Of a stretch of 64,000 bases of DNA, positions 32,195 through 49,724 are shown in pieces (the first letter of the stretch is position 1; each line of letters begins with the position of its first letter). The notes under the pieces were generated by a model. That model was given only the letters and a program-made list of their open reading frames with translations. It searched no databases and was not told the DNA's origin. Source of the DNA: an uncultured Erysipelotrichaceae bacterium (GTDB lineage: Bacteria; Bacillota_I; Bacilli_A; Erysipelotrichales; Erysipelotrichaceae); the NCBI GenBank assembly GCA_902778375.1, contig CACYXJ010000002.1:14231-78230 (forward strand), in the 5' to 3' direction. A program made the translations under genes and the position numbers.

Positions 32195-33091
32195 ATGAGC
32201 CTGACAAGGAAACAGTTTGATGTTCTGGAAGTATTGGCCACATCAGAAGAGACTCTGACGCAAAGAGAACTTGAGGCTGACACCGGACACAGTCTGGGAA
32301 CGGTAAACCGTATTCTCAAAGAATTGAATGAACTTGGTTATGCCGGAAACGGAAAGATCACCAATGCCGGCATGACAGCTTTGGAACCATATCGTGCGAA
32401 AAGAGCGGTTTTTATTGCGGCCGGATTTGGTTCCCGCCTTGTTCCGATTACTTTCAATACTCCCAAACCTCTGATTCGTGTTCAGGGTGTTCGCATTATT
32501 GACCGTCTGATTGATGCATGTCTGGAAGTTGATATTGATGATATTTACATTGTCCGCGGACATCTCGGAGAACAGTTCGACCAGCTTCTCTATAAATATC
32601 CGATGATCAAGTTTCTGGAAAATCCTATGTATAACGAGACAAACAATATCTCCAGTTCCTTGGTCGCGCGGTATCTGCTTTCCAACGCATATGTGTTCGA
32701 AGCAGATCTTCTGATATCCAATCCAAAGATTATCAGGAAGTATCATTACACTTCCGACTTCCTGGCAATCAAAAAGGAACGCAGCGACGACTGGTGCCTT
32801 CGGGTCAGAAACGGTGTGATCGTTGAAGAAATGGTCGGCGGAGAAGGCGACGATATCTGGCAGATGGTCGGTATATCTTACTGGAATGAAGCAGACGGCA
32901 ATATGCTTGCCCAGGATATCCAGGAGGTATATGCATCTCCCGGCGGAAAGGAACGTTATTGGGAACAGGTGCCGCTGGTATACAGAAAAGAGCGGTATGC
33001 TGTCAGGGTTCAGGAATGCTTTGAATCAGATGTCGTGGAAATCGACACCTTTACCGAACTGAAGGCAATTGATAAAACATACGACGTGTAA
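32195..33091 (+). CDS. Winged-helix + LicC-type cytidylyltransferase
   Basis: wHTH 'LTQRELEADTGHSLGTVNRILKEL'; NTase 'AAGFGSRL.P.T...PKPL', 'NNISS', 'EADL', 'DDW', 'GISYW', 'YWE', 'EIDT'. Confidence 0.85.
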   Translation: MSLTRKQFDVLEVLATSEETLTQRELEADTGHSLGTVNRILKELNELGYAGNGKITNAGMTALEPYRAKRAVFIAAGFGSRLVPITFNTPKPLIRVQGVRIIDRLIDACLEVDIDDIYIVRGHLGEQFDQLLYKYPMIKFLENPMYNETNNISSSLVARYLLSNAYVFEADLLISNPKIIRKYHYTSDFLAIKKERSDDWCLRVRNGVIVEEMVGGEGDDIWQMVGISYWNEADGNMLAQDIQEVYASPGGKERYWEQVPLVYRKERYAVRVQECFESDVVEIDTFTELKAIDKTYDV

Positions 33092-33176: not shown

Positions 33177-33250
33177 TTGACGTTTATAGTTTGCGTTATT
33201 AAAATTATGTTCAGTTCTTGTTAAAAACACAGTTCAACGTGAACTGTGTT
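33177..33250 (+). promoter_or_regulatory. Sigma-A promoter of the ABC operon and downstream 11-3-11 palindrome
   Basis: TTGACG (33177-82), 17 bp, TAAAAT (33200-05); AACACAGTTCA-acg-TGAACTGTGTT (33226-50). Confidence 0.7.
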
Positions 33251-33340
33251 ATGTGTTTCTGAAAAGGATATGTATCAAAACGTGTTCAAAACAGGCGGTA
33301 AGCACAGGCAAGAAGGAAAAAAAGCAGGAGAATTAACGTT

Positions 33341-34384
33341 ATGAAAAAGAAAAACATGAGCATGGCTGCGTTTCTGTGCAGTGCGGCACTTGTACTGACA
33401 GGCTGCGGTTCTTCCAACAGTGCGTCCGGTACTGAACCGGCTTCCAGCGGCGGAAAAGACCGCGTAGTCATCTATACAGCTGCTGAAGATGAGCGGATTG
33501 AATATATTCAGCAGGAACTTGATAAGCAGTTCCCGGATACTGAAATCGTGATTCAGTCGCTTGGAACAGGCCAGCTTTTATCGAAACTGCAGGCAGAAGG
33601 TACAAACAGCGACTGTGATATCTTCTATGATCTGGAAGTTGTGAATGCGGAAATCATTCTGAACGCATCTCCGGATCTGTTCGCGGATCTTTCCGAATAT
33701 GACTTCTCTATTTACGATGCGTCTGTTACCGGCTATACTGATCGTCATCACCAGTATGCAGTCAACGGCAAGACAGCTGGTGCGTTCCTGGTCAATACCA
33801 AGGTTCTGGAAGAGAAAGGTCTTCCGGTTCCGGAAACATATGAAGACATGCTGAAGCCCGAATATGCCGGTCTGATCTCAATGCCGAGTCCCAAGTCTTC
33901 CGGAACGGGTTACAGCTACTACAACGGAATGGTTACTGTTCTTGGTGAAGAAGCAGGTATGAAGTACTTCGATGACCTGAACCCGAACATCAAGGAATAT
34001 ACAACTTCCGGTTCTGCTCCGGCAAAGGCAGCTGTCCGCGGTGACGTCGCAATTGCTTACGGTCTGCTCTGGCAGTGTGTCAACTATGCCAACGAGAATG
34101 AAGGGCTGAAAGTCATCATTCCTGAAAACGGGCTTGCCTTCGATCTGTTTACCATGGGCATGATTTCCGGTCATGAAACAAAAGGCAGCGTCAAGGAAGT
34201 GTTCACTTATCTGTATAACGAACTGAACAAGCCGCAGTGTGCGAAGTTCAATCCGGATAAGATCTACGTAGATATGCCGGCTGCTGAAATTGCAAACTAC
34301 CCGGAAAGCTATGCAGAGATTACCATGAACGGTCTGTTCGATTTCAACTATAAACAGAATCTGCTGGATCAGTGGAAATACTGA
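33341..34384 (+). CDS. ABC substrate-binding lipoprotein, Fe3+/sugar-phosphate/2-aminoethylphosphonate class
   Basis: Lipobox 'LTGC'; 'VIYTAAE', 'GLPVPETYEDMLKPEY.GLISMPSPKSSGTG', 'YTTSGSAP'. Confidence 0.82.
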   Translation: MKKKNMSMAAFLCSAALVLTGCGSSNSASGTEPASSGGKDRVVIYTAAEDERIEYIQQELDKQFPDTEIVIQSLGTGQLLSKLQAEGTNSDCDIFYDLEVVNAEIILNASPDLFADLSEYDFSIYDASVTGYTDRHHQYAVNGKTAGAFLVNTKVLEEKGLPVPETYEDMLKPEYAGLISMPSPKSSGTGYSYYNGMVTVLGEEAGMKYFDDLNPNIKEYTTSGSAPAKAAVRGDVAIAYGLLWQCVNYANENEGLKVIIPENGLAFDLFTMGMISGHETKGSVKEVFTYLYNELNKPQCAKFNPDKIYVDMPAAEIANYPESYAEITMNGLFDFNYKQNLLDQWKY

Positions 34385-34403
34385 TTTCTTAAGAAAGGCT
34401 CAG

Positions 34404-34431
34404 GAATAGCAGGGATGCCTGCTATTCTTTT
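34404..34431 (+). terminator. Hairpin/partial terminator between SBP and ATPase genes
   Basis: GAATAGCAGG-gatg-CCTGCTATTC followed by T run. Confidence 0.6.
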
Positions 34432-34470
34432 CTTAATTATGTCTTTATGAAATACCAGGAGGAAACAACA

Positions 34471-35229
34471 ATGGCAGAACCTATTATTCAGGCAGTCAAT
34501 ATAAGTAAAAAATTCAAGTCCAAAACGGTCCTGGAAGATATTTCCTTTGATATCATGCGGGGAGAATTCCTGTCCCTGCTGGGACCTTCAGGATGCGGCA
34601 AAACAACGATTCTGCGCATGCTGATCGGTATTGAACAGCCTACGGCTGGCAAGATATTGAAAGACGGCGTGGATATCACAAATGCTGCACCGAAAGACAG
34701 AAACATCGGTATCGTTTTCCAGAATTATTCTTTGTTCCCGAATATGGACGTTTACCATAATATTTCCTATGCACTCAGCGCAAAGAAAATGGGAAAGGAA
34801 GAGATTGACAAAAAGGTCAAGGAAATCATCGAAACTGTCGGACTTGAAGAACATATCTATAAAAAACCAAAACAGCTTTCCGGCGGCCAGCAGCAGAGAG
34901 TGGCTATCGCCAGAACGCTGGTTCTGAATCCGGACGTGATTCTGTTTGACGAGCCGATGTCAGCTCTTGATGCGGAAATCAAAGTCATTCTGCGTCAGCA
35001 GCTGAAAGAGATTCAGAAGAAGCTGAAAATAACGATGGTGTATGTCACTCATGACCAGGAAGAAGCGTTTGCGCTTTCCGACCGCATCATGGTACTGAAC
35101 GACATGCGGATCATACAGATGGATACACCGTATAACCTTTATCACAACCCGACCGATCCGTTCGTAAAGCGGTTTGTCGTCGATCATCTTGATTTGAAAG
35201 TCAAATCGATAGAGGACAGCATCAAATGA
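34471..35229 (+). CDS. ABC ATP-binding protein (PotA/FbpC class, no TOBE tail)
   Basis: 'GPSGCGKT', 'LSGGQQQR', 'LFDEP', 'VTHD'; GGAGG before ATG 34471. Confidence 0.9.
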   Translation: MAEPIIQAVNISKKFKSKTVLEDISFDIMRGEFLSLLGPSGCGKTTILRMLIGIEQPTAGKILKDGVDITNAAPKDRNIGIVFQNYSLFPNMDVYHNISYALSAKKMGKEEIDKKVKEIIETVGLEEHIYKKPKQLSGGQQQRVAIARTLVLNPDVILFDEPMSALDAEIKVILRQQLKEIQKKLKITMVYVTHDQEEAFALSDRIMVLNDMRIIQMDTPYNLYHNPTDPFVKRFVVDHLDLKVKSIEDSIK

Positions 35230-37796
35230 ACACGCAGATCAATCGTGCCGGCAGAATCATCAAGCATGAATACCTGAGGCTCATATCAATAGGATGTATT
35301 CTGCTGTTTGCCATTCTGCCGCTGCTGACACTGGCATTTCATGTGACCGGGGAGGACTGGAGTTATATTCTGCAGGATGCAACATTCTGGGCAGCTGTCA
35401 AAAATTCCCTGATCTATACGACTGCAGCAGCCGTGACCACCACGGTGCTTGCCCTGGTTGCGGCATATCTGCTGAATACATCAAGTCTGAAGAGGAAAAA
35501 CCTGTTTGTCATTCTTCTGACACTTGGCATGCTTGTACCGACGATTTCCGTCGGTCTTGGTCTGAGAGTGCTTTTCGGTACAAACGGGTTTATCGATCTG
35601 CTTTTCGGGGCGGAGATCGAAGTCAGAGGCTTCTCAGGGCTGATCATGGGTTCAGTAATGACCTCGTTCCCGGCAACGTTTTTGATTCTCTATGATGCCC
35701 TGAACTATGAAGACAAGGGACCTTATGATGCAGCAAGCATCATGGGCATCGGCCGGCTGAGCACTTTCTTCCGAATGACCGTTCCCTATCTCAAGATTGC
35801 CTTGATTTCAGCTTTCTTTGCCTGTTTTACGCTGATCTTTTCCGACTATGGAATGCCGATGGAAATTGCCGGTAAGGTAAGCACCTTACCGATGTATCTT
35901 TACGATCAGTTCATGAGTAGCTTTCAGTATGGAAGAGGTTCGATTGCCGGCTTTGTTCTGCTGGTGCCTTCCATTGTTTCCTTTGTATTCGATTTGATCT
36001 TCAAGGATCAGAGTGAAAGCGAAAAGCAGAAAAAACTGATCGAAGCGGAAAAGAGTTTCAATATCGGCACAGCCGTGGTCATTACGCTGCTGTGCCTGGT
36101 TCTTTTCCTGCCGCAGCTGGCATTTATCAGCCTGTCTCTGACAAGGGCATTCCCGAACGATCTGTCGTTCACCTTTGAACACATTGCAAATATCTTCTCG
36201 AACACACACGGAGTGGGCCTGACGGCGTATATCTGGAATTCCCTGTCGCTGTCACTGCTTACGGCACTGTTCGGTACCGCATTTGCCTATCTGCTCGGTT
36301 ATCTGAGTGTCAGAAAAAGCGGCAGAATGGCAAAGGTCGTCAACCTGCTGGCATTGAGTACGATTGCTATTCCCGGTCTGGTACTGGGTATCGGTTTTAT
36401 CTTCCTGTTCAAGGGGACAAACGGCTATTTCTATGGGACCGTTCTGATCCTGGTTGTCGTGAATATCTTCCATTTCCTCGGATCACCGTATCTTCTGGCA
36501 AAGAACTGTCTCAGCAAGATCAACAGTGATTATGAGATTATCGGTGAGACACTGGGGATTTCCAAGGGACAGATCATCAGAAATGTTCTGATTCCCAATT
36601 CAGTGTCCACTCTGGTTGAAATGTTCTCGTATTTCTTCCTCAACAGCATGATTACGATCTCGGCTGTTGCCTTCCTGTGCAGTTATGACAACCAGCCGCT
36701 GTCCATCCTCATCACAACATATGAGAAAAACAGCAACTACGAGATGCAGAGCGTTATTTCTCTGATCATTCTGTTCCTCAACGTTGTAGCCCGGACCGGA
36801 TTTACGGCAATTGCAAACACATTACGTAACGCTGAAGCTAAAGAAGTTGACGGCGGCATCGGTCTTGAACGCCATGAATTTGATTTCCTGACATATCTGG
36901 AGAAACAGGGCAGAGGGCAGTACAGTCTTAGAAAAATGGCTGATGATCTGACAATTTCCCTGAATAACGTACAGAAATATCTGAAAGAGCTGAACGACAG
37001 GAACTATATCAATATTTTTGCGGACGGCAGTATTGAAATCAGCGAAAAAGGACTTAAGGCGCTTGAACCGTACAGAGTCCGCAAGGCAATCATCCTGGCA
37101 GCCGGCTTCGGTTCCAGACTGGCTCCGGTCACGCTGGATACACCTAAGTCGCTGGTCAAGGTCAACGGAGAAAGAATCATCGATACATTACTTGATGCTC
37201 TGGTTGCCAAGGGTATTACCAACATCACAATTGTCAGAGGCTACAAAAAGGAACAGTTTGATGCCTTGCTGGAGAAGTATTCTACGATCCGGTTCATTGA
37301 CAATCCGGAATACAACATCACCAACAATATTTCTTCCGCTGTCTGTGCAGCTGACCTGATTGACCGTTGCTATATCTGCGAAGCTGATCTGTATATCACC
37401 AATCCGGATGTCATAAACAAATATGAATATCAGTCCAATTATCTCGGGGCAAAGGTATCCGAAACGGATGACTGGTGCTTCAAAAAGATTAACGGTGCGG
37501 TTGCGGATTATCAGATGGGCGGTACAGACTGCTATCAGGCATTCGGTATCTCATACTGGAACAGTGAGGATGCGGAAAAACTGAAAGCAGACCTCCGCAA
37601 GGTATACGCCAGCAGAGGCGGCAAGGAAAACCTCTGGGAAATCGTACCGCTGAGAATCATGAAAAAGAAGTATCATCTGGAAGTCCGCAAATGTCATAAG
37701 AGCGACATTATCGAAATCGACAACTTTATCGAACTGATAGCGGCAGACAGTTCATATGCCCATTATCCGGGATATGAAGGTTTCCGGGTAGAATGA
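35226..37796 (+). CDS. Fusion: double ABC permease + winged helix + LicC-type cytidylyltransferase
   Basis: Two EAA-like loops ('DAASIMG', 'IIGETLG'); then 'YSLRKMADDLTISLNNVQKYLKEL'; then 'AIILAAGFGSRL', 'NNISS', 'EADL', 'DDW', 'GISYW', 'EIDN'. Single uninterrupted ORF. Confidence 0.85.
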   Translation: MNTQINRAGRIIKHEYLRLISIGCILLFAILPLLTLAFHVTGEDWSYILQDATFWAAVKNSLIYTTAAAVTTTVLALVAAYLLNTSSLKRKNLFVILLTLGMLVPTISVGLGLRVLFGTNGFIDLLFGAEIEVRGFSGLIMGSVMTSFPATFLILYDALNYEDKGPYDAASIMGIGRLSTFFRMTVPYLKIALISAFFACFTLIFSDYGMPMEIAGKVSTLPMYLYDQFMSSFQYGRGSIAGFVLLVPSIVSFVFDLIFKDQSESEKQKKLIEAEKSFNIGTAVVITLLCLVLFLPQLAFISLSLTRAFPNDLSFTFEHIANIFSNTHGVGLTAYIWNSLSLSLLTALFGTAFAYLLGYLSVRKSGRMAKVVNLLALSTIAIPGLVLGIGFIFLFKGTNGYFYGTVLILVVVNIFHFLGSPYLLAKNCLSKINSDYEIIGETLGISKGQIIRNVLIPNSVSTLVEMFSYFFLNSMITISAVAFLCSYDNQPLSILITTYEKNSNYEMQSVISLIILFLNVVARTGFTAIANTLRNAEAKEVDGGIGLERHEFDFLTYLEKQGRGQYSLRKMADDLTISLNNVQKYLKELNDRNYINIFADGSIEISEKGLKALEPYRVRKAIILAAGFGSRLAPVTLDTPKSLVKVNGERIIDTLLDALVAKGITNITIVRGYKKEQFDALLEKYSTIRFIDNPEYNITNNISSAVCAADLIDRCYICEADLYITNPDVINKYEYQSNYLGAKVSETDDWCFKKINGAVADYQMGGTDCYQAFGISYWNSEDAEKLKADLRKVYASRGGKENLWEIVPLRIMKKKYHLEVRKCHKSDIIEIDNFIELIAADSSYAHYPGYEGFRVE

Positions 37797-37824
37797 CACG
37801 TCGGTTCTGTTACAAAGCATATTG

Positions 37825-37848
37825 GCCATGGTGAAAACCATGGCTTTT
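37825..37848 (+). terminator. Terminator after the ABC operon
   Basis: GCCATGGT-gaaa-ACCATGGC-TTTT. Confidence 0.7.
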
Positions 37849-37956
37849 CTGATGATTTAAGTATGTTAATAGTTTGGAAAAAAGAGTAAGTTTCGTTTAC
37901 CTTACTGCATACTGTGCGGTAAAATGAAGCGGATACAACAAAAGAAGGAGTTGAGT

Positions 37957-38658
37957 ATGACAAAAGCAATTTTAATGGCAGCAGGTCTGGGTACGAGAAT
38001 GAGACCGCTGACAGAAACGATGCCGAAGCCGATGATAGAGGTGAACGGTACACCGATGGTCGAAACTGTTGTAAAGGGACTTCTGGAAAACAATGTCGAC
38101 AAACTGTATGTTGTTGTCGGCTATCTGAAGGACAAATTCGCGCCTCTGGCGGAGAAGTATCCTGAGATTGTCCTTGTCGAAAATACCGAATATACCATCA
38201 AGAACAATATTTCTTCGATTCACGCAGCAGCAGATTACATGCATGGGGATGATTTCTTTATCTGTGAAGCAGATCTGTATGTATCGGATCCTTCTATCTT
38301 CGCAATTCCGCATAAACAGTCCTGCTATTATGGCGTCATGGTGAAAGGCCATTCCGATGACTGGGTATTTGATCAGGATGAAAACGGACGGATCATCCGT
38401 GTCGGTAAATGCGGAGATGATGTATATAACATGTGCGGTGTTTCCTGGTTCAACCAGAACGATATTGAGACTCTGCGTGACTGCATTCTGAAAGAATATG
38501 AAAATGAAGGACACGAGCAGCTTTTCTGGGATGATGTTGTTGACAGGAATCTGGATGTTCTGAATCTGACAGTATGTCCGATCGACAGAAAGCAGATCAT
38601 CGAACTGGATACTGCTGATGAACTGTATGAATTTGAAAAAACACTGAACAAGGATTAG
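37957..38658 (+). CDS. licC: LicC-type choline/ethanolamine-phosphate cytidylyltransferase
   Basis: 'KAILMAAGLGTRMRPLTETMPKP', 'GYLKDKF', 'GVSWF', 'FWDDVV', 'ELDT', closely resembling pneumococcal LicC; AAGGAG before ATG 37957. Substrate not proven. Confidence 0.75.
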   Translation: MTKAILMAAGLGTRMRPLTETMPKPMIEVNGTPMVETVVKGLLENNVDKLYVVVGYLKDKFAPLAEKYPEIVLVENTEYTIKNNISSIHAAADYMHGDDFFICEADLYVSDPSIFAIPHKQSCYYGVMVKGHSDDWVFDQDENGRIIRVGKCGDDVYNMCGVSWFNQNDIETLRDCILKEYENEGHEQLFWDDVVDRNLDVLNLTVCPIDRKQIIELDTADELYEFEKTLNKD

Positions 38659-38674
38659 ACAGAAGGCTGCTTAA

Positions 38675-40150
38675 ATGAGTACAAACAAAAATGACAAACA
38701 GCCGGGTCTGCAGAGACAGCTGAGTCCGATGCATGTATGGGCAATCGCCTTTGGATGCATTATTGGCTGGGGCTCCTTTGTAAACCCGGGCAAAAAGTTT
38801 CTTCCTAATTCCGGTGTAGCCGGAACTGCAATTGCCATGGTGCTTGGTGCACTGGTCATGATGGTCATTGCCTGCAGTTATGCCTACATGGTTCCGAAAT
38901 ATCCGAAAGCCGGCGGCGAGTTTACCTTTACCAAGGCCTGCTTCGGCAAACGGGCGGCATATGTCTGCGGCTGGTTCCTGGTTGCGGCATATCTGACCAA
39001 TGTTCCGATGAATTCCACCGCAATCGGACTGATCGTGGACGGTCTGGACGGAGCTGCGGATATTCTGAAATTCGGATTTCATTATACGATTGCCGGCTTT
39101 GACGTCTATATGGGAGAGATGCTGTTCGCAATGTCGATTCTGGTGTTGTTTGGCTGGCTGAATATTGTCGGTGTCAAAAAGGCCGGCTTTGTTCAGACCG
39201 TATTGGCTGCATTGCTGGCATTATCAGTCGGCACGCTGACCATCGCAGCAATTATCAGTTCCAAGACTAGTACTGCCAACATGGCTCCGCTCTGGGGTTT
39301 TGACAAAGCATCCGCGATTGCGGCATACAAAGCCGGAACCTATACCGGAGTGGATGAATTTGCCAATACCAATATCATGTCGGCGATTCTGGCAACCTTT
39401 GCCATTGCACCATGGGCATATGTCGGCTTCGACACGATTCCCCAGGCAGCGGAAGAGTTCAAATTTTCCTATAAAAAAGTCAGCATGATCATGGTTGTTG
39501 CCATTGTCTTCGGCTGCTTTGTCTATACGGCAAACAATACGATTACTGCAGCTGCCCTGGAGAACTGGCCGGATCTGATCGTTGAATCGTCTTCCACTCC
39601 GTGGCTGCTTCTGGCTGCGGCGGAAAGACTTCTGGGGACACCGGGCAAAATTCTTGTTGGCGTTGCTGTGTCGTGTGCAGTTCTGTCGGGTATTATGGGA
39701 TTCTATCTTGCGTCAAGCCGTCTGATGTATTCCATGAGCAGAGACGGATATCTTCCTGATTTCTTCGGAAAGATCGATGAAAAACACGGAACCCCGAAAA
39801 ATGCGATGCTGTTCTGTATCGCTGTATCCCTGACCGGACCGGTTCTCGGCCGTGAGGCACTGGGCTGGTTTGTGGATATGTCCGCGATCGGAGCATCGAT
39901 CGGCTTCATGTTCACCTGCATGTCGACAATCGTTACCATGAAGCGCAATCAGGACAGGAGTCCGTTCCTGAAATGGATGGCTGTCCTTGGTGCGACATTC
40001 TCACTGGCGTTTATTGTTCTGCAGCTGGTTCCGATTCCGGGACTGGAAGGGGTACATTTCGGCGGGGAATCCTATGTACTTCTGGTCGTCTGGATCGTAT
40101 TGGGAATTATGTTTTATATCTATCAGGTTGATGAAATCAACGCATCATAA
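38675..40150 (+). CDS. APC-family amino acid/amine permease
   Basis: 'AFGCIIGWG', 'PKAGGEF', 'WAYVGFD', 'ASSRLMYSM', ~12 TMs. Confidence 0.85.
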   Translation: MSTNKNDKQPGLQRQLSPMHVWAIAFGCIIGWGSFVNPGKKFLPNSGVAGTAIAMVLGALVMMVIACSYAYMVPKYPKAGGEFTFTKACFGKRAAYVCGWFLVAAYLTNVPMNSTAIGLIVDGLDGAADILKFGFHYTIAGFDVYMGEMLFAMSILVLFGWLNIVGVKKAGFVQTVLAALLALSVGTLTIAAIISSKTSTANMAPLWGFDKASAIAAYKAGTYTGVDEFANTNIMSAILATFAIAPWAYVGFDTIPQAAEEFKFSYKKVSMIMVVAIVFGCFVYTANNTITAAALENWPDLIVESSSTPWLLLAAAERLLGTPGKILVGVAVSCAVLSGIMGFYLASSRLMYSMSRDGYLPDFFGKIDEKHGTPKNAMLFCIAVSLTGPVLGREALGWFVDMSAIGASIGFMFTCMSTIVTMKRNQDRSPFLKWMAVLGATFSLAFIVLQLVPIPGLEGVHFGGESYVLLVVWIVLGIMFYIYQVDEINAS

Positions 40151-40160
40151 GCAGACAGTA

Positions 40161-40203
40161 AAGGCATGGATGCGCAGAAATGCGTAATAATCCATGCCTT
40201 TTT
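40161..40203 (+). terminator. Terminator after the APC permease
   Basis: AAGGCATGGAT...ATCCATGCCTT-TTT. Confidence 0.7.
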
Positions 40204-40260
40204 GAGCAATATCATATATTATATATAGGTTAGAGCATTAGTTGAAACAGGGGTATAGTT

Positions 40261-42375
40261 ATGGGCTTTTTGGGACAGATACTGGGACCGTTCATGAGTT
40301 TTTGTTACAATCTGACAAAAAACTACGGCCTGGCAATTATATTATTCACTCTGATCAGTAAGTTTATTCTGCTTCCGATTTCGGTGTGGGTGCAGAAAAA
40401 CTCGATTACCATGGTGAAGATCGAGCCGGAAGTCAACCGGATCAAGATCAAGCATTTTGGTGACAAGGATACAATTGCTGAAGAACAGCAGAAACTTTAT
40501 AAAAAGGAACATTATAATCCGCTGGCATCCCTCGTACCGCTGATCGCCCAGATTGTTTTGCTGATGGGTGTTGTCGAGGTTATTTATCATCCTCTGGATT
40601 ATGTCCTGCGGGTACCGCAGCCGGTTGCTCAGGACATGATGAAAGTGACTCTGGAGAATGTGGATTTCCTGGATGAAGAATCCAGTTCGATTCAGATCTA
40701 TACAGTAGAGGATATTCAGGCGGGAAATGAAGCCGATTATCTGCAACTGCAGGAAAAATACCCGGATACGGATCTGCAGCCTGTCATCGATTCCTGTAAG
40801 AACTTCAATATGAAATTCCTGGGAATCGATCTGGGATGGATCGCATCTGAGGTCGGCGGTATTGCCCTGATTGCTCCGCTGCTGGCGGGTCTTTCCTCCC
40901 TGCTGCTGGCAATTGCCCAGAACAAAATCAATCCGTTGCAGGCAGAGCAGTCCAACGCCAATAAATACGGCATGCTGGCATTTTCTGTTGCGCTGTCGTT
41001 ATATCTTGGCATGTTTGTTCCGGCCGGTGTCGCACTTTACTGGGTTGCCAGCAACCTGATGGCGATCATCCAGCAGTGGCTGATGAACAAAGCCATTAAT
41101 CCGGAGAAATATGTTGACTATGAAGCTTTGGAGTCGACACGCGAAGAACTGAAATCGCTGTCCGGCGGAGACAAGAAACTGAAATTCAACGATCCGCTGG
41201 CGAAACGTGCGAAAGCAGACTATAAACGTTTCTTCTCGATCGAAAACAAGCACCTTGTTTTCTATTCAGAAAGCAACGGTTTCTATAAATACTTCAAGGG
41301 TATGATCGAATATATCCTGAAGTATACGAATATTCCTGTTCATTACATCACCAGTGATCCGAACGACCAGATCTTTGAACTGGCAAAAGAGAATGATCAG
41401 ATCAAGCCGTACTTCATCGATCCAATCACACTGATCACATTGATGATGAAGATGGATGCAGATGTTGTCGTCATGACAATGCCTGACCTTGAAACGTATC
41501 AGATCAAACGTTCCTATGTCCGCAAGGATATTGAATATATCAATATTTCCCATGGAATGGGATCCCTGAATATGACTTTCCGTAAGGGTGCCCTGGATCA
41601 TTTCGACACAGTATACGCATCCGGAAAGCATCAGAAGGAAGAACTGGAGAAACAGGAAGAATTCTATCATCTCCCGAAGAAGAATATTTTCGAAGGCGGC
41701 TATCCGCTGCTCGATGACATGCGGGCCAGTTATGCTGCTTCAGAAAAGCCGGTTCATGAGAAAAAACAGATTCTGATTGCTCCGTCATGGCAAAAGGACA
41801 ATATCGTTGACAGCTGTCTGGACGAAATTCTCGAGCAGTTGAAAGGACATGGCTATCAGATCACGGTCCGTCCGCATCCGCAGCATGTACGCCATATGCC
41901 GGAAAAGATGGAAGCGCTCAAGCAGAAGTTTGCCAACGATCATGATATTGAGATCCAGACCGACTTCTCCAAAACCAGCAATGTCTTTGAGGCCGATCTG
42001 ATGATTACCGACTGGTCGGATATTTCCCACGAATTTGCCTATACGACATACAAACCGGTTCTCTTTATCGATACTCCGATGAAGGTCATGAATCCGGAAT
42101 ATCAGAATATCGATACAGTTCCGATCAACATCTGGGTAAGAGATGAAATCGGTATGGTTGTCGGACTGGATAAACTGGACGAAATACCTGAAAAGGTTGA
42201 ATACATGCTGTCGCATACAGAAGAGTATCATGAGCGCATTGATAAACTTGCGCACGAATATGTATATCACCTTGACGAAAGTGTGCCTTATGATGCCCGC
42301 TATATTATCGAGGCGGTATTCAGAAAAGTAGAAGAAAGAAACGGTGTAAAAGCAGAAAATGTACAGACTGCTTAA
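40261..42375 (+). CDS. Fusion: YidC/Oxa1 insertase + TagF-like (CDP-glycerol glycerophosphotransferase-type) domain
   Basis: YidC 'NYGLAIILFTLISKFILLP', 'EEQQKLYKKEHYNPL', 'GVALYWVASN'; TagF-like 'SHG', 'GYP.LD', 'APSW', 'RPHP', 'DLMITDWSDI'. Confidence 0.82.
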   Translation: MGFLGQILGPFMSFCYNLTKNYGLAIILFTLISKFILLPISVWVQKNSITMVKIEPEVNRIKIKHFGDKDTIAEEQQKLYKKEHYNPLASLVPLIAQIVLLMGVVEVIYHPLDYVLRVPQPVAQDMMKVTLENVDFLDEESSSIQIYTVEDIQAGNEADYLQLQEKYPDTDLQPVIDSCKNFNMKFLGIDLGWIASEVGGIALIAPLLAGLSSLLLAIAQNKINPLQAEQSNANKYGMLAFSVALSLYLGMFVPAGVALYWVASNLMAIIQQWLMNKAINPEKYVDYEALESTREELKSLSGGDKKLKFNDPLAKRAKADYKRFFSIENKHLVFYSESNGFYKYFKGMIEYILKYTNIPVHYITSDPNDQIFELAKENDQIKPYFIDPITLITLMMKMDADVVVMTMPDLETYQIKRSYVRKDIEYINISHGMGSLNMTFRKGALDHFDTVYASGKHQKEELEKQEEFYHLPKKNIFEGGYPLLDDMRASYAASEKPVHEKKQILIAPSWQKDNIVDSCLDEILEQLKGHGYQITVRPHPQHVRHMPEKMEALKQKFANDHDIEIQTDFSKTSNVFEADLMITDWSDISHEFAYTTYKPVLFIDTPMKVMNPEYQNIDTVPINIWVRDEIGMVVGLDKLDEIPEKVEYMLSHTEEYHERIDKLAHEYVYHLDESVPYDARYIIEAVFRKVEERNGVKAENVQTA

Positions 42376-44341
42376 AACGACATTCAAATATCTGTATTTC
42401 TCAGCAGCATTCCTGCTTCTTTTCACCGTTCCTGTTCAGGCTTATATCGATCCTTCGGTCATGACATATGCCATCCAGGCACTTGCCGGTATCGCGATCG
42501 CTCTGGGTACATTCTTCGGTCTTTACTGGCGTAAGATCCGTAAGCCGGTACTGAAATTCTTTAACCTGGATGAAACCGTCGGACGTGAAGAAGAATCGGA
42601 TGAACTTGTCTTTTTCGATCCCTCTGTGATGAAGGAAGAAAAACGGATCATTCTGCCGAAGACTGCCGAAGGAAAGACTTCCGAGGACAGAAAGAAAGGA
42701 AAACTGCGGGAAATTGCAGAAGATATGATACCGGCGCTGTTTATTACGCTGTCCGGTTGCTTCATGGTGTGTATCTATGCACCGCTGGATCTATTCTTCA
42801 ACAATAAGAATGAATTCTGGTTCAATGCCGGCATTCTGGTGCCGCAGCTGATCCGTATGTTCTGTATGTTTGTGCCGGCTGTGCTGCTGATATACCTGCT
42901 TTGCCGGCTGATCAGCAAAAAGGTTTATTCCGGCGCTCTGTTTATTTCCACAGCTGCATTTATCTGCTCGTACATACAGGGCAATTTCCGCATCAGGAAT
43001 CTGCCGCCGATGGACGGTTCGTCTGTTGACTGGACGATTTATGACACAGAAAATGCCATTACGGCAATAATATGGGTCATTGTGATTACTGCTCTTCTGT
43101 ATGTTTACAAGTATGTCAGGGATAAAGGATTTAAAGCTGTTGTCGAAGTGGTAAGCTGTCTGCTGCTTGTAATTCTTTCCGTTTCTCTCTTTACTTCCTA
43201 TCTGGGCTCCCGGAATATTGTGGAGAAGAGCGTGTTCGTTTCTACCAAGGACCATGAGTTTGAGGTATCCGATACAGAGAATTTCTTTATTCTGGTGGTG
43301 GATGCCGTGGATGCCGACCGATATGCTGATGTATTCAACAGTCATCCTGAATATCAGGAATGGTTCGAAGATTTCACATTCTTCCAGAATGTCACCAGTA
43401 TCTATCCGTTTACATCCAGAGCCATTCCGCAGATTCTGACCGGAGAAGTCTATGAAAACGAAATGGACTTCACGGAGTTTGTCACCCAGGCTATGGACAG
43501 GTGTCAGTTCTTTCAGACACTGGAAAATGACGGTTACCGGATGGGAATATATGAATGCGAACTGCCATATAACGGCGACAAGCTTCACCGGTTTGAAAAT
43601 ATGAAAACCGACGATGTCGATCTGAATCCGGCTGCGAAAAACACCTTCATCAAAGAACAGTTCAAACTGACACTGTTCAAGTACCTGCCGTACTACTTCA
43701 AGAAATTCATTCACTGCAACACAAACAGTTTTTCCAGCATGATCTGGCCGGAACCGTTCCTGATGGTCAACCGTGATTTCTATGAAGATCTGCTGGAAGA
43801 CAATGTCGGGCATACAGGCGATAAGGTTTTCCGTTATTACCATGTGGAAGGCGGACATGTACCGTTTGTCTATGACAAGGATGTAAATTCGATTCCTGAG
43901 GAAGAAGGTACATACCGTCAGAACGTGGAAGCCAGCATGACGATTGCCGGTGCTTTTGTAAACAAGCTGAGAGAGGCTGGGGTTTATGATAACGCGACCA
44001 TTATTATCATGGCCGACCATGGATACAGCGATGATGTCGGCGGAATTATGGACCGTTTCAATCCGCTCCTGATGATCAAGAGTTTCGGAGAGAAACATCC
44101 GTATGCAGTATCCCAGGCGCCGCTTTCCTATGTGGATCTTCCGGAAGCGTATAACCGGCTGCTGGAGCATAAAACTGCTGAAGAATGCTTTGATGCCCGG
44201 GAAGGCGACGCAAGAGTCAGAAGACTGCTGTGGCTTGAATGGCTGAAAGAAGAATACATGGTTGAATACTATCAGGACGGTTATGCATCGGATTATCAGA
44301 ATATCAAACCGACCGGTAAAGAATTCAGATTGGAGCAGTGA
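42359..44341 (+). CDS. LtaS/EptA-like membrane transferase, paralogue 2 (YIDPS module)
   Basis: 'VQA|YIDPSVMTYAIQ', 'VDAVD', 'FTSRAIPQILTG', 'HVEGGHVPF', 'MADHG'; overlaps the yidC fusion by 17 bp. Confidence 0.75.
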   Translation: MYRLLKTTFKYLYFSAAFLLLFTVPVQAYIDPSVMTYAIQALAGIAIALGTFFGLYWRKIRKPVLKFFNLDETVGREEESDELVFFDPSVMKEEKRIILPKTAEGKTSEDRKKGKLREIAEDMIPALFITLSGCFMVCIYAPLDLFFNNKNEFWFNAGILVPQLIRMFCMFVPAVLLIYLLCRLISKKVYSGALFISTAAFICSYIQGNFRIRNLPPMDGSSVDWTIYDTENAITAIIWVIVITALLYVYKYVRDKGFKAVVEVVSCLLLVILSVSLFTSYLGSRNIVEKSVFVSTKDHEFEVSDTENFFILVVDAVDADRYADVFNSHPEYQEWFEDFTFFQNVTSIYPFTSRAIPQILTGEVYENEMDFTEFVTQAMDRCQFFQTLENDGYRMGIYECELPYNGDKLHRFENMKTDDVDLNPAAKNTFIKEQFKLTLFKYLPYYFKKFIHCNTNSFSSMIWPEPFLMVNRDFYEDLLEDNVGHTGDKVFRYYHVEGGHVPFVYDKDVNSIPEEEGTYRQNVEASMTIAGAFVNKLREAGVYDNATIIIMADHGYSDDVGGIMDRFNPLLMIKSFGEKHPYAVSQAPLSYVDLPEAYNRLLEHKTAEECFDAREGDARVRRLLWLEWLKEEYMVEYYQDGYASDYQNIKPTGKEFRLEQ

Positions 44342-44350: not shown

Positions 44351-46330
44351 ATGAGAAAAATGCTGAAAAGCGGAATACGGTATGTTTATTTTTCAACAGC
44401 CTTTCTGTTTCTTTTCACAATCCAGGCAAATGCATATATTGATCCTTCTGTCATGACCTATGCAATTCAGGCGCTTGCCGGTATTGCGATTGCATTAGGC
44501 ACATTCTTCGGACTGTACTGGCGAAAGATCCGGAAACCGATTCTTCACTTCTTTAATCTGGATGAAACCGCCGGAAGAGAAACAGAATCGGATGAACTGT
44601 ATTTTTATGATGCTTCCTGTATGAAGGAAGAAAGGCGTATCACACTGTCTTTGGACAGTCCGGATAAAAAGTCTGTAAAGGATAAAGGAAAGTTCGGACA
44701 GATTCTTTCCGACCTTGTACCGGCACTGTTCATTACTCTTTCCGGATGCTTTATGCTGTGTATCTGTGCGCCGCTGGATCTGTATTTCAACAATAAGAAT
44801 GAATTCTGGTTCAATACAGACATTCTTGTTCCGCAGCTGATCCGCATGATGTGCATGATTGCACCGGTTGTGCTTCTGGTGTATCTGCTGATCCGGCTCA
44901 TCAACAAAAAAGCATATTATATTTCTCTTGTCGTTTCTGTGATTGCCTTTGTATGTTCCTATATTCAGGGAAATTTCCGCATCAAAAATCTGCCTCCGAT
45001 GGACGGCTCTTCTGCCGACTGGTCACGCTATACAGGCGAGAACATCATAACGCTGCTGATATGGATTGCTGTCGGAACAATAGTGGTATGGATTTACCGG
45101 AAGGTAAAGGACAAAGGTTTTGCGTCCGTTGCGGAAGTGGTCAGTGTGCTGATGGCGGTTATTCTTTCCATTACACTTGTAACAACTGCCATTGGATCCA
45201 GAAATGTTATCAAGAAAGCATTGTATGTAGCAACAAAGGACGGTGAATTCAAAGCCTCAAAGCAGGATAATCTGTTTATTCTGGTTCTGGATGCGCTGGA
45301 TGCGTATACCTATGATGAAGTGGCACTTGCTCATCCGGAGTATAAAGAATGGTTTGCGAATTTTACGTATTATCCGAATACGACCAGCGTGTTTCCGTTT
45401 ACGACCCGCTCCATACCGCAGATGTTGACGGGAAAGATTTTCGAAAACGAAACGGACTTTACAGAATACAGCACGGATGCACTGGACAATGCGGAATTCC
45501 TGCGGCATCTTGAAGAACGCAATTATCAGATCGGTATTTATGAAACCGAATTATCCTATAACGGAGATAAACTGTCCCGTTTTGAAAACATCCGGACAGA
45601 TGATGTTGAACTGAACATGGCTGCGAAGAACACCTTTATCAAGGAACAGTTCAAGCTTGTTCTCTTCAAATATCTCCCGTACTGTTTCAAGCAGTATGTT
45701 GACTGCAATACCAACAGTTTTATCAGTATGATCTGGCCGCCGCCGTTCCGTACGGACAACTGGGATTTTTACAATGATATCCATACAGCGGAAACCGAAT
45801 ATATCGACCAGAACAATTTCCGGTTTATTCACGTGGAAGGAGCACATGTGCCTTTCAGATATGACAAGGATATGAACTGGATTTCTGAAGACGAGGGATC
45901 ATATTACAAAAATATCGAAGCGAGCATGACGCTTGCCAATGCATATATTCAGAAACTGAAAGATGCCGGAGTGTATGATAATTCCGCAATCATTATCATG
46001 GCTGACCACGGCTCCAGAATTCTTGATGAAGAGGAAGATGAATTATACAAATTCAATCCGATCTTCATGGTCAAGGGAATCGGAGAAAATCATGAGTACC
46101 GTGTCGATCAGGCACCGCTCTCCTATGAAGATCTGATCGAATGCTATGAAAGGCTGATGGATCATAAGCCCGCATCAGAATGTTTTGACTGGAAAGAGGG
46201 AGATCACCGTGTCAGACGGCTGATCTGGTCGGCATGGCTGCAGGAAGACCACATGATCGAATATACATTGGACGGACATGCTTCAGAATTTGAAAAAATG
46301 GAACCGACAGGAAGAGAATTCAACCGATAA
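44351..46330 (+). CDS. LtaS/EptA-like membrane transferase, paralogue 3 (YIDPS module)
   Basis: 'ANA|YIDPSVMTYAIQ', 'LDALD', 'FTTRSIPQMLTG', 'HVEGAHVPF', 'MADHG'. Confidence 0.75.
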   Translation: MRKMLKSGIRYVYFSTAFLFLFTIQANAYIDPSVMTYAIQALAGIAIALGTFFGLYWRKIRKPILHFFNLDETAGRETESDELYFYDASCMKEERRITLSLDSPDKKSVKDKGKFGQILSDLVPALFITLSGCFMLCICAPLDLYFNNKNEFWFNTDILVPQLIRMMCMIAPVVLLVYLLIRLINKKAYYISLVVSVIAFVCSYIQGNFRIKNLPPMDGSSADWSRYTGENIITLLIWIAVGTIVVWIYRKVKDKGFASVAEVVSVLMAVILSITLVTTAIGSRNVIKKALYVATKDGEFKASKQDNLFILVLDALDAYTYDEVALAHPEYKEWFANFTYYPNTTSVFPFTTRSIPQMLTGKIFENETDFTEYSTDALDNAEFLRHLEERNYQIGIYETELSYNGDKLSRFENIRTDDVELNMAAKNTFIKEQFKLVLFKYLPYCFKQYVDCNTNSFISMIWPPPFRTDNWDFYNDIHTAETEYIDQNNFRFIHVEGAHVPFRYDKDMNWISEDEGSYYKNIEASMTLANAYIQKLKDAGVYDNSAIIIMADHGSRILDEEEDELYKFNPIFMVKGIGENHEYRVDQAPLSYEDLIECYERLMDHKPASECFDWKEGDHRVRRLIWSAWLQEDHMIEYTLDGHASEFEKMEPTGREFNR

Positions 46331-47330: not shown

Positions 47331-47346
47331 AAGGTAAGTGATGGAG

Positions 47347-48423
47347 ATGCTTAATTTTACAGTCGGACCGGTAATGAGCAACGAAGAGGTCCGTGCAATT
47401 GGCGGGGAACAGGTACCGTATTTCCGAACAGCAGAGTTTTCGGAACTGATGCTGGAAAACGAAAGACTGATGAAGAAATTCGCAAAGGCAGATGAAGGTG
47501 CGAGAGTAGTTTTCATTACCGGCTCAGGAAGTGCATCGATGGAAGCCAGCGTAATGAACAGCTTTACGCAGCAGGACAAGGTGCTGGTTGTCAATGGCGG
47601 CAGTTTCGGTGCCCGTTTTGTAAAACTGTGCTGTGATGTTCATGAGATTCCGTTCTCTGAAATCAAACTAAGACCGGGACAGAAACTGACGGAAGATCAT
47701 CTGAAACCGTATGACGGACAGGGATATACCGGTTTCCTGGTAAATGTCGATGAAACATCTACAGGTGTTTTATATGATATGGAAATGATCGGCAGATTCT
47801 GCAGAAGGAACAACCTGTTCTTGGTGGCAGACTGTGTCAGCGCGTTCCTGGCGGACCCGTTCAACATGGCAGAAATCGGCGCTGATATTATGATTACCGG
47901 CTCACAGAAGGCACTTGCCTGTCCGCCCGGCATTTCGGTAATCGTTCTGAGCAAAAGGGCGGTCGAGCGGGTCAATCAGATGCATGTCAGGTCACTCTAT
48001 TTCGACCTGAAGGATTCGTTGAAGAACGGGGAAAGAGGACAGACTCCTTTTACTCCGGCAGTATCTGTACTCCGACAGATCAATGCAAGACTCAGGGAAA
48101 TAGAAAGAAACGGCGGCGTGGATACGGAAACAGCCAAGATTGCGGCTCTTGCGGCAGATTTCAGGGAAAAGATCAAAGAACTTCCTTTTGAGTTTGTTTC
48201 CGAAAGCCCGGCCAACGGTGTTACTCCGCTGCATCCGTTGAATGTATCGGCATATGACATCTTCCTTGAACTGAAAGACAACTATAATATCTGGATCTGC
48301 CCGAATGGGGGCGAACTGAAAGATACGGTGCTCAGAGTCGGTCATCTCGGCGACCTGGCACCGGAAGACAACACAACTTTGATCAATGCACTGAAAGACA
48401 TGCAGAGCAGAGGATTGTTATGA
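47347..48423 (+). CDS. Class V PLP-dependent aminotransferase
   Basis: 'FTVGP', 'GSGSASME', 'ETSTG', 'DCVS', PLP lysine in 'GSQKAL'. Start could be 47338/47341. Confidence 0.85.
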
Positions 48424-49724
48424 CGAAAGTAATCACTTACGGAACATATGATCTGATGCATTATGGCCATGTCCGTCTGCTTGAGCGTGCAAAAGCGCTG
48501 GGAGACTATCTGATTGTCGGTGTTACCGCTGAAGATTTCGACAAGCAGCGCGGCAAGATCAATGTCAAGCAGTCGCTGGAAGAAAGAATTGCCAATGTCA
48601 GGGCGACCGGGCTTGCGGATCAGATCATTGTCGAAGAATATGAAGGTCAGAAAATAGATGACATCAAACGATATGATGTTGATATTTTTACAGTAGGATC
48701 TGACTGGGTCGGTGTGTTTGACTACCTGAATGAATACTGCAAGGTTGTATATCTTGACAGAACCCAGGGTATTTCAAGCACACAGCTGCGCCAGGAAAAC
48801 TCCGTGAAAATCGGTATTGTCGGCGCATCCAGAGTTGTCAATAAATTCGGCAATGAATGCGGATATGTGAATGGCATCGAGGTCGCCGGTGTATGTACCG
48901 ATAATACCAAGGTGCTGTCCGAAGAACTTCAGGGAGCAGAACTGACAGGCGATTTCACCCAGCTTCTGACCAAGGTTGATGCTGTTTATATCTATTCCAC
49001 GCCGGAACTTCATTATGATCAGGCAAAGCAGGCGCTGCTTGCAGGAAAACATGTATTATGTGAATCCCCGATCGCATTGAAGAAAGAGCAGTGTATTGAA
49101 CTGTTTCAGATTGCGAAAGAAAAAGGACTTGTTTTGCAGGAATCCATTAAAACAGCATATTCGCTGGCATATTCCCGGCTGGTACTGCTGGCAAAAGGCG
49201 GGAAAATAGGCAAAATCGTTTCAGTGGATACAAGCTGCACAAGTCTGAAGGATCTTCCGGAAGGCTGGGGCAGCCTGGATGACTGGGGACCGACAGCAAT
49301 GCTGCCGGTGCTTCAGCTGCTGGGCACAGATTACAGAAGCATAGAAGTTCTGTCGCAGTTCAACGAGGAAACCGGATTTGATTCATTTACAAAGGTTAAT
49401 TTCCGGTATGACCATTCAGTTGCATCTGTTAAAGTCGCAAACGGTGTTAAGTCCGAGGGAGAACTGATTGTGTCCGGTACAAAGGGATATATTTATGTTC
49501 CTGCTCCGTGGTGGAAAACAGACTATTTCGAAGTCCGGTTTGAGAATCCCGACAACAACAAACGCTATTTCTACCAGCTGGATGGAGAAGGAATCCGGTT
49601 TGCAATTGTTTCCTTCATAAAGGCGATCGAAGGAATACAAAGCACAGGATATATTGAAGAGAGCGTTTCGGAAGCCATTTCAGGCGTTATCGAGTATTCA
49701 AAGGAAAACGCAATAGTACTCTGA
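48420..49724 (+). CDS. Fusion: TagD-like cytidylyltransferase + Gfo/Idh/MocA oxidoreductase
   Basis: '[11 protein letters not shown]', 'RTQGISST'; then 'IGIVGA', 'GKHVLCESP'. Confidence 0.85.

Follow-up and report, generated by a model that had tools for sequence, protein, structure and literature searches.

YidC is regarded as a general membrane protein insertase, and the Pf3 coat protein and, together with leader peptidase, the M13 procoat protein are its textbook YidC-only substrates. Three-component wall glycosylation relies on a GtrB/CsbB synthase, a GtrA flippase, and a GT-C ecto-transferase. In the Dlt system, the microprotein DltX carries an invariant-Tyr shuttle motif, and this motif is found in fused form in other MBOAT pathways (PMC12148441). 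Furthermore, Oxa1-family insertases, YidC among them, act as lipid scramblases in vitro and in silico (PMC11047089), and nucleotidyl activation dominates the phosphonate tailoring of cell surfaces (PMC6697681). Here, we describe a locus in which a YidC paralogue is hard-wired to a wall enzyme, a microprotein, and often a signal peptidase. It lies in a 64-kb stretch of DNA from an uncultured Erysipelotrichaceae bacterium (contig CACYXJ010000002.1, positions 14,231 to 78,230; the whole stretch is hereafter the window and is numbered from its first letter). The gene set is widespread in gut and rumen bacteria, and its hub is a fusion of YidC to a TagF-like phosphotransferase domain. The full module consists of this YidC-TagF protein, a membrane helix that starts with Y-(I/L/V)-D-P-(S/G) (the YxDP helix; YIDPS in the window), often a signal peptidase I, and one to three ecto-enzymes.

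The fusion is encoded by an open reading frame (ORF) on the plus strand (40261..42375; 704 residues; ATG start), for which Pfam, TIGR03592, AlphaFold2 (AF2), and Foldseek agree on a complete YidC core followed by a C-terminal TagF-type GT-B domain, as the original prediction had it. The core occupies residues 1–283 (40261..41109) and aligns with YidC sequences in the PDB. Pfam 60KD_IMP (PF02096) matches residues 22–277 over its whole profile (1–163/163, E = 2.8e-33), and the generic YidC domain model TIGR03592 is passed with 110.9 bits against a cut-off of 84.3. The AF2 model, built on 32 diverse family members, has a mean predicted local distance difference test score (pLDDT) of 89.3 and a predicted template modeling score (pTM) of 0.60. 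It places an amphipathic N-terminal helix before five transmembrane (TM) helices, TM1 (22–36), TM2 (91–109), TM3 (200–223), TM4 (232–252), and TM5 (255–278), with a cytoplasmic hairpin (38–82; helices 38–64 and 69–82, pLDDT about 82–93) between TM1 and TM2. Between TM2 and TM3, the model shows an extracytoplasmic helical insert (residues ~111–198; 40591..40854), which is variable and is absent from the family members of ~620–650 residues. Two linker helices (residues 287–326; 41119..41238) then lead from TM5 to the predicted cytoplasmic GT-B domain (residues 327–704; 41239..42372), modeled as a two-Rossmann domain (330–704).

Upstream, an AGGGG Shine–Dalgarno-like motif lies ~7 nucleotides (nt) 5' of the ATG. 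Past the preceding permease gene, a terminator-like hairpin followed by TTTTT can be read directly from the sequence (AGGCATGGAT...ATCCATGCCT; 40160..40208, plus strand); its position between the permease gene and the fusion suggests that the fusion gene starts a new transcription unit. Downstream, the stop codon (42373–42375) lies beyond the ATG of the next gene (42359). The 17-nt overlap bears out the proposed coupling of the fusion to this gene, which encodes the ecto-enzyme called YIDPS paralogue 2. A few short metatranscriptome contigs on the two genes are compatible with expression and are too thin to define an operon.

Next to the housekeeping protein, the YidC half looks familiar. Lys34 (codon 40360..40362), in the motif LISKFILLP, aligns in phmmer comparisons with PDB sequences to R366 of E. 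coli YidC and R72 of B. halodurans YidC2, and the predicted replacement of the groove Arg by Lys thus holds. The same Lys occurs, however, in a housekeeping protein. The origin region of Ruthenibacterium lactatiformans carries dnaA, rpmH, rnpA, yidD, a gene for a 340-residue YidC, and jag. This YidC is 30% identical to residues 1–283 of the fusion (E = 1e-34) and shares with it both the groove Lys and the long TM2–TM3 insert, and related housekeeping YidCs have Arg, Lys, or Gly at the groove position. The Lys, which had been singled out as a peculiarity of the fusion, is therefore nothing special, and neither is the long loop; as a mark of a repurposed groove, the Lys-for-Arg exchange was ruled out. 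The identity, the shared Lys, and the shared insert make the YidC half a paralogue of the Clostridial housekeeping type. The difference lies at the C-terminus, where housekeeping YidCs end in a lysine-rich tail, whereas the fusion runs on into the GT-B domain.

The accessory status of the fusion is indicated indirectly by its locus context, by failed equivalog models, by its patchy, horizontally spread distribution, and by paired copies. Its neighbors in the window are transporter, nucleotidyltransferase, and glycan genes, not the rpmH-rnpA-(yidD)-yidC-jag series, and the expectation of a non-housekeeping context was borne out in that no rnpA, jag, mnmE, or second yidC lies within the 64-kb window. 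All 18 NCBIfam YidC equivalog models score far below their cut-offs (for example, the SpoIIIJ model NF002803 gave 64.2 bits vs. 377). A tblastn search with YidC queries across the related loci found no second yidC. For the genome scans, we used the Ruthenibacterium YidC singly and as a profile to find housekeeping proteins, and a set including an Oscillospiraceae-centered profile to find fusions; PLSDB contained no Lachnospiraceae or Erysipelotrichaceae origin regions. The Ruthenibacterium origin region described above comes from a PLSDB record labeled as a 72-kb plasmid of Subdoligranulum variabile (OY725844.1), which carries dnaA-rpmH-rnpA-yidD-yidC-jag at 30828–39658. The YidC encoded there matches that of Ruthenibacterium lactatiformans 585-1 at 100% identity, and the record is probably a mislabeled chromosomal fragment.

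The TagF-like half matches Pfam Glyphos_transf (PF04464) over residues 326–607 (E = 3.8e-12; 46.3 bits vs. a gathering threshold of 22.1). In Foldseek searches of the PDB, TagF ranked first (3l7k_D, E = 2.2e-9), TarL (8va1) third, and Bcs3 (8a0m) twenty-second; generic GT-B enzymes share the list with TarL and the TagF-like part of Bcs3, and the TM-scores were modest because the query has two domains. Single-sequence and narrow-profile searches gave no match to solved structures. A broader profile including 46 stand-alone relatives, on the other hand, matched TarL (E = 9.6e-8) and paired IAPSW with APTF, RPHP with KMHP, and TDWS with SDYS, all in the C-terminal, nucleotide-binding Rossmann half. 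In the fusion, these motifs lie at 506–510, 537–540, and 583–586, respectively. Upstream of the aligned region, outside every alignment and at the expected distance, stands an SHG motif whose His431 is a candidate catalytic His, putatively equivalent to H444 of TagF and H300 of TarL.

Conservation was counted over 228 full-length fusions. His431 is kept in 225 of them, and no fewer than 224 retain each of Asp366, Lys416, Arg417, Glu461, Ser509, Trp510, Arg537, His539, and Asp584-Trp585-Ser586; E591 is less fixed (E in 216, D in 10). At the groove position, 218 fusions have Lys and 5 have Arg (K/R = 223), and all canonical YidC motifs are retained across the fusions. These counts indicate that both domains are under strong purifying selection. 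Decay or poor conservation of the TagF domain, a possibility raised at the outset, is not what we found: the domain is conserved and, judged by its sequence, looks active, with the predicted, putative catalytic and nucleotide-binding residues in place. The link to YidC does not extend across the whole wider TagF-like clade, as three stand-alone relatives (P0199, P0213, and P0232) do not lie beside YidC-like genes.

The most constant partner of the fusion is the helix. We examined the neighborhoods of 80 related loci, the counts from which are not phylogenetically independent. In 78 of them, a six-frame motif scan located an ORF with a Y-(I/L/V)-D-P-S helix adjacent to the fusion; the two loci without it are contigs that end 2–5 nt past the fusion gene. 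In 70 of the 80 loci, the helix ORF starts at most 400 nt downstream on the same strand, and in 62, the helix is a stand-alone microprotein of 63–118 residues. In the Solobacterium-type loci, the window included, the helix module is instead fused to the N-terminus of the sulfatase-type enzymes, and such in-frame fusions, found in the window and about 16 other loci, keep the acidic motif as a cytoplasmic loop. The microprotein consists of a variable leader, a mature part of the form YIDPSVMTYAIQAxAGxxIAxGAxxGIY(W/F)RKAKKK, and an acidic tail (LGIDEN(K/R)NKEVESDDI). Tyr1, Asp3, and Pro4 are invariant, Ser5 and a mid-membrane Gln are nearly so, and the motif lies 0–5 residues from the mature N-terminus or directly past a signal-peptidase site. 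Distant fusions (36% identity) pair with leaderless microproteins of the type MYLDPGxGGMLxQ.... Neither Pfam nor NCBIfam holds a family for the helix module. A profile search with the microprotein returned 5910 relatives, of which the best 120 are all 64–98 residues long and labeled hypothetical, and one microprotein cluster is present on at least 1000 contigs.

Sulfatase-type enzymes neighbor the fusion in 65–67 of the 80 loci (from tblastn of the window proteins and from neighbor clustering). Most of them begin at the equivalent of residue ~110 of the window YIDPS proteins and have no YIDPS helix. The suggestion that the fusion is an insertase dedicated to the YIDPS proteins thus stands as to linkage, which is very strong, and not as to the partner, which is the helix module and not the enzymes. 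As constant partner, the sulfatase-type enzymes were rejected, as most lack the helix and those of one locus (L085) are replaced. In that locus (1–7380), there are two YidC-TagF genes, each with its own leaderless MYLDP microprotein encoded upstream of the fusion; two membrane proteins of ~580 residues with only a weak DUF6056 match stand in place of the sulfatase-type enzymes, and TagD-like and FGGY-kinase genes lie nearby. In eight Oscillospiraceae-type loci (L028, L031–L035, L040, and L042), the microprotein leaders are 12–16 residues long, basic, and non-hydrophobic, and end in K/R-G before YIDPS; no signal peptidase I (S26) gene is nearby.

Gene fusions, a gene fission, and the signal peptidase tie the parts together. 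Long representatives of 1168–1545 residues occur in both orders, sulfatase-YidC-TagF and YidC-TagF-sulfatase, and either order is consistent in topology, since the sulfatase domain lies outside, as does the N-terminus of YidC. Four proteins with YidC-TagF first (P0121, P0137, P0152, and P0163) contain an internal ...xxA|Y(I/V)DPSV... at about residue 680–697. In a split version (L081), a stand-alone TagF-like gene (39% identical), a gene for a 70-residue microprotein with NANA|YLDPNSGG, and a gene for a 224-residue YidC-like protein follow one another, beside a sulfatase-type gene and a phosphonate set (phosphoenolpyruvate mutase, decarboxylase, and iron-dependent alcohol dehydrogenase). One further representative is a signal peptidase I-YidC-TagF fusion. 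Peptidase_S26 genes occur in 29 of the 80 loci; among the neighbor families, only the fusion itself and the sulfatase-type enzymes are commoner. Of the stand-alone microproteins (62 in all), an S26 gene accompanies 28 of the 38 with a Sec-type signal peptide and 0 of the 24 whose leader is short or missing (Fisher p = 1.4e-9, without phylogenetic correction). S26 is thus found only where there is a signal peptide to remove, and the short N-terminal tail of the mature protein therefore appears to matter.

In the window itself, three ecto-enzymes carry the helix, all on the plus strand. YIDPS paralogue 2 (42359..44341; 660 residues) has a signal peptide (residues 1–28, ...PVQA), the helix (29 to ~58), an acidic cytoplasmic linker (~59–114), and an enzyme part (115–660) made of a TM bundle and an extracytoplasmic alkaline-phosphatase-superfamily domain. 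Its helix module, YIDPSVMTYAIQALAGIAIALGTFFGLYWRK (42443..42532), is homologous to the stand-alone microproteins found elsewhere. YIDPS paralogue 3 (44351..46330; 659 residues; motif from 44435) and YIDPS paralogue 1 (30098..32134; 678 residues; motif from 30218) have the same architecture. The match to PF00884 reached 33.1 bits (threshold 25), and no NCBIfam family matched these enzymes. In Foldseek searches, paralogue 2 found full-length PbgA/YejM (6v8q and 6xlp), MCR-1 (9nww), and soluble sulfatases. D315, T352, and D553-H554, the candidate nucleophile and metal-binding residues, do not vary among 36 sequences and agree with the pattern of the superfamily. The AF2 model of paralogue 2 (pLDDT 85.4, pTM 0.73) scores above 90 in the core (115–660), 54–80 in the signal peptide and YIDPS helix, and below 50 in the linker. 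The helix is thus not confidently packed on its own enzyme, and we count this feature of the model as support for a docking site that may lie on YidC.

The architecture is far beyond chance, with thousands of relatives. A word-indexed search gave 7480 matches, the best 120 of which are full-length (681–734 residues) and all but one of which carry both Pfam domains; the databases call family members "membrane protein insertase YidC" or give them no name. An exhaustive search of 50%-identity representatives gave 12,524 matches at E ≤ 1e-3, of which 576 had E ≤ 1e-30. Scans seeded by patterns, which extend only to fairly close relatives, picked out a few hundred of 185,579 species genomes. The carriers among these species representatives are Erysipelotrichaceae/"Solobacterium" (the closest at 95% and 91% identity), Lachnospiraceae (Waltera, Acetatifactor, Lachnospira eligens, Roseburia, and strain COE1), Oscillospiraceae/Ruminococcaceae, uncultured Bacilli, and metagenome-assembled genomes (MAGs) of Saccharibacteria. 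The window also matches rumen and gut metagenome contigs. Across these classes, the Saccharibacteria MAGs included, the fusions are 55–65% identical, which implies horizontal spread and fits travel with glycan loci. Our literature search found no description of the fusion or of the YIDPS/YLDPG motif and no YidC paralogue assigned to teichoic-acid or phosphonate tailoring, and two phosphonate-genomics papers mention neither YidC nor TagF. The parts come from known families, and their fixed combination is an undescribed variant that could prove to be a new kind of trans-envelope relay.

Could the YidC half insert the YxDP helix and then keep it, as part of a relay that hands head groups from the cytoplasm to the wall? 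This is the reading that we tentatively prefer for this accessory paralogue, while placing it somewhat short of probable. The YidC domain would insert the YxDP hairpin as it would a Pf3-like or procoat-like substrate, and signal peptidase would trim the hairpin to leave Y-I-D-P-S at the outer membrane surface. The helix would stay docked at the YidC groove with its acidic tail on the TagF domain and would thereby couple the enzymes outside to the TagF enzyme inside. The TagF domain would take a phospho- or phosphono-head group from a cytidine nucleotide and load it onto a carrier embedded in the membrane, for which a lipid or glycolipid is the likeliest candidate. The loaded carrier would cross the membrane at the YidC groove, and the outside enzymes would attach the head group to a glycopolymer of the wall or of the lipoteichoic type. 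The crossing step is plausible because YidC-family proteins scramble lipids. A further step would be to regard the YidC paralogue and the YxDP microprotein as a trans-membrane conduit or shuttle for phospho- or phosphono-head groups, loaded by the TagF domain onto a lipid or onto Tyr/Ser and delivered to the ecto-transferases. We hold this as possible, with rather less confidence; by analogy, such a conduit would be the phosphoryl counterpart of the DltB-DltX-DltD acyl relay.

Several points weigh against a docked relay. Architecture, conservation, gene linkage, fusions, and genomic context were observed directly, and it is from these that we infer insertion, docking of the helix on YidC, the (lipid) carrier, and the direction of flow. 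The pTM of only 0.60 makes the arrangement of the two domains uncertain, the counts over the 80 loci lack phylogenetic independence, the YidC-like protein of one distant split variant has Asn at the groove position, and the large neighboring membrane proteins of L085 are not sulfatase-type. LtaS-type enzymes can use ordinary phosphatidylglycerol, and the LicD, the Wzx-type flippase, and the TagGH-like exporter of the locus make a purely cytoplasmic route of decoration possible. Along that route, the YidC domain would insert and release the YxDP helix and the ecto-enzymes and do nothing else, the TagF domain, held at the membrane by the fusion, would add head-group phosphates to a lipid-linked polymer at the cytoplasmic face in the manner of classical TagB, TagF, and TarL, the polymer would leave through the Wzx or ABC exporter of the locus, and the outside enzymes would work independently, for example, from phosphatidylglycerol. 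Such a division of labor agrees with the canonical YidC motifs and the groove charge that the fusion keeps, with the Wzx, TagGH-like, and LicD genes in the window, with the likeness of the YxDP module to both classical types of YidC-only substrate and the matching signal peptidase, and with the normal action of TagF-family enzymes on lipid-linked polymers at the inner face. It leaves a universally linked microprotein without a function of its own, however, and does not explain its conserved acidic cytoplasmic tail or why, across phyla, the TagF, YidC, and helix parts have remained associated whether fused, split, or joined in triple fusions; moreover, a housekeeping YidC should already insert such substrates. 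We consider pure insertion somewhat unlikely. A covalent peptide shuttle like DltX is less likely still. The Tyr or Ser of the YxDP helix would carry the phospho-head group covalently, the TagF domain would load the tail in the YidC groove, YidC would move the tail outward, and the alkaline-phosphatase-type enzymes would unload it onto the polymer. The invariant Tyr1, Asp3, and Pro4, the nearly invariant Ser5, and the placement of the motif at or near the mature N-terminus suit such a shuttle, an aryl phosphodiester should be a chemically good donor for alkaline-phosphatase-type transferases, and the helix stands alone in some lineages and is fused to the downstream enzyme in others, a pattern also seen with the DltX motif (PMC12148441). 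On the other hand, the YidC groove opens to the cytoplasm, where the TagF site also lies, so that the tail would have to flip to and fro across the membrane in each cycle; TagF-family enzymes are known to modify polyol and sugar hydroxyls, not protein side chains; and the leaderless forms keep 1–5 extra N-terminal residues, so that a free Tyr amino group is not required.

Regulation offers another role for the helix. As in MifM, insertion by the YidC domain would relieve a translational arrest at the acidic motif and thereby control translation of the downstream ecto-enzymes; the gene for a small N-out TM protein does adjoin a yidC paralogue and, in most loci, immediately precedes the enzyme genes, and the acidic motif of this protein (IDENxNKEVESDDI), ~25–30 residues past the TM helix, recalls the MifM arrest region. 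Yet the module is fused in frame to the enzyme in the window and in the other loci with helix-enzyme fusions, the triple fusions carry it internally, the gene order varies (the microprotein is upstream of the fusion in L085 and usually downstream elsewhere, whereas a MifM-type leader peptide precedes the yidC that it regulates), and the TagF domain is left without a role, all of which makes a sensor very unlikely. Finally, the fusion might be the sole, housekeeping YidC of its host with an extra enzyme domain, as the database names and the complete core would allow. It also weighs on that side, and against the reading that we prefer, that the genome scans, which reach only fairly close relatives, found no carrier assembly with both the fusion and a housekeeping (second) yidC. 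This explanation has to account, however, for a variable glycan locus in place of the rpmH-rnpA-yidD-yidC-jag context seen in Ruthenibacterium, for equivalog models that fail by wide margins, for the horizontal spread implied by the identities across classes, for the small share of species genomes matched, for a TagF domain in place of the basic ribosome-binding tail, and for two copies of the fusion on one contig (L085) and two in one MAG (L006/L038); we regard it as improbable in the extreme. We retain as our working model an accessory insertase that would keep its client docked in a relay.

What cargo might such a relay carry? In the window, the head groups look like imported 2-aminoethylphosphonate-type compounds. 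An ABC importer (33341..37796, plus strand) is closest to the putative 2-aminoethylphosphonate transporter PhnS2/T2/U2, with all of its matches below the curated cut-offs. Its last ORF (35226–37796) joins a PhnU2-like permease with two BPD_transp_1 domains to a winged helix and a LicC-like nucleotidyltransferase; it is unusual for a transporter to be tied directly to the enzyme expected to activate what it imports. Upstream (32195..33091, plus strand), a MarR-type helix-turn-helix domain is fused to a LicC-like nucleotidyltransferase, a fusion that recurs in related loci; the MarR/winged helix-turn-helix-LicC-like type is present in about 21–22 of the 80 (for example, L002, 14166–15104). Between the importer and the fusion (37924..40150, plus strand) are a LicC-like nucleotidyltransferase (37924–38658) and an amino-acid/ethanolamine-type permease (38675–40150). 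Beyond the ecto-enzymes (47338..49724, plus strand), a gene for a PhnW/AepZ-like class-V aminotransferase precedes one in which a TagD-like cytidylyltransferase is joined to a GFO/IDH oxidoreductase. This pair recurs in 8–11 related loci and is a candidate for head-group tailoring; speculatively, it might make a CDP-linked amino-polyol head group. Elsewhere, a fusion of a LicC-like nucleotidyltransferase to a CobD-like enzyme occurs in 21 loci. In one of these, L072 (16–1773), the protein has 585 residues, and its CobD-like (threonine-phosphate decarboxylase) part is a pyridoxal-phosphate enzyme. The fusion suggests a CDP-amino-alcohol head group made via a decarboxylated amino-acid phosphate. 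The common denominator across the loci is a small head group activated by a cytidine nucleotide, which fits a TagF-type transferase and agrees with the dominance of nucleotidyl activation in the phosphonate tailoring of cell surfaces (PMC6697681).

The window also holds, besides the LicD, the Wzx-type flippase, and the TagGH-like ABC exporter, rhamnose genes and glycosyltransferases. A divergently transcribed set on the minus strand (26205–29984) encodes a GT4 glycosyltransferase, a Bac_transf priming sugar transferase, an NAD epimerase/dehydratase, and an IspD/TarI-like cytidylyltransferase, and suggests that a CDP-ribitol-type unit is made in the locus as well. Three consecutive genes (18657–24180), which encode a TerB_N/TerB_C protein, a BrxC/BrxD-family ATPase, and a DEAD/Cas3-like helicase, look like a phage-defense island immediately upstream of the glycan locus.

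The loci of the fusion probably decorate surface glycans with phosphonate or amino-alcohol head groups. Modifications of this kind influence how a cell is recognized by the immune system, how phages adsorb to it, and how choline-binding-type proteins are anchored. If our working model is right, the module supplies the missing transferase step of phosphonyl tailoring, of which only nucleotidyl activation has been described so far (PMC6697681). It would also be a natural, dedicated insertase–client pair and possibly a case of a YidC groove used for non-protein cargo, a question that lipid scrambling has opened. The module is common in gut and rumen Firmicutes, and several of its carriers are cultured.

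How, then, does the module compare with the systems that are known? Like housekeeping YidC, SpoIIIJ, and YidC2 (B. halodurans YidC2, 3WO6/3WO7), the fusion has five TM helices, the hairpin, a charged groove residue, and the LYW..SN motif. It differs from them in its gene context, in the GT-B enzyme that takes the place of the basic tail, in failing the equivalog models, and in always being paired with a specific microprotein module. With the CDP-glycerol and CDP-ribitol phosphotransferases TagF, TarL, and TagB (3L7K and 8VA1) and with TagF-like capsule polymerase domains (Bcs3, 8A0M), it shares the GT-B fold, the motifs aligned with TarL, and perhaps the catalytic His, for which His431 is the candidate. 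Unlike TagF and TarL, it is too divergent for a single-sequence or narrow-profile match to the solved structures and is covalently fused to YidC, and its neighbors suggest small zwitterionic head groups (2-aminoethylphosphonate, amino-alcohol phosphates, or glycerol phosphate) and not a defined poly(glycerol/ribitol phosphate) pathway. The YIDPS enzymes resemble LtaS, GacH, EptA/MCR-1, and PbgA/YejM in their TM bundle and sulfatase fold and, putatively, in their Asp, Thr, and Asp-His positions; unlike LtaS, EptA, and PbgA, they carry an extra YxDP helix or are accompanied by one.

The microproteins, in turn, look like the classical clients of YidC. The leaderless ones, with M-x(1–4)-YIDPS, a TM helix, and a basic stretch, resemble the Pf3 coat protein, and those with a signal peptide, a near-zero acidic loop, and a TM helix resemble the M13 procoat protein and co-occur with a signal peptidase I gene; in contrast to the phage proteins, they are cellular, strongly conserved, and encoded beside their own YidC paralogue. 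The proposed relay would share with three-component glycosylation the logic of loading a carrier inside, flipping it, and transferring outside, with unrelated parts and with phospho- or phosphono-cargo in place of a sugar. By analogy and not homology, the module would share its logic with the Dlt system: a donor is activated in the cytoplasm, a polytopic protein spans the membrane, the single-pass microprotein bears an invariant Tyr within a short conserved motif at its extracytoplasmic end, and a transferase acts outside. The two systems have no sequence relationship, however. Dlt transfers acyl groups, whereas the YxDP system would transfer phosphoryl or phosphonyl groups, possibly through a covalent intermediate, and the groove of YidC opens to the cytoplasm, whereas the MBOAT funnel of DltB opens to the outside.

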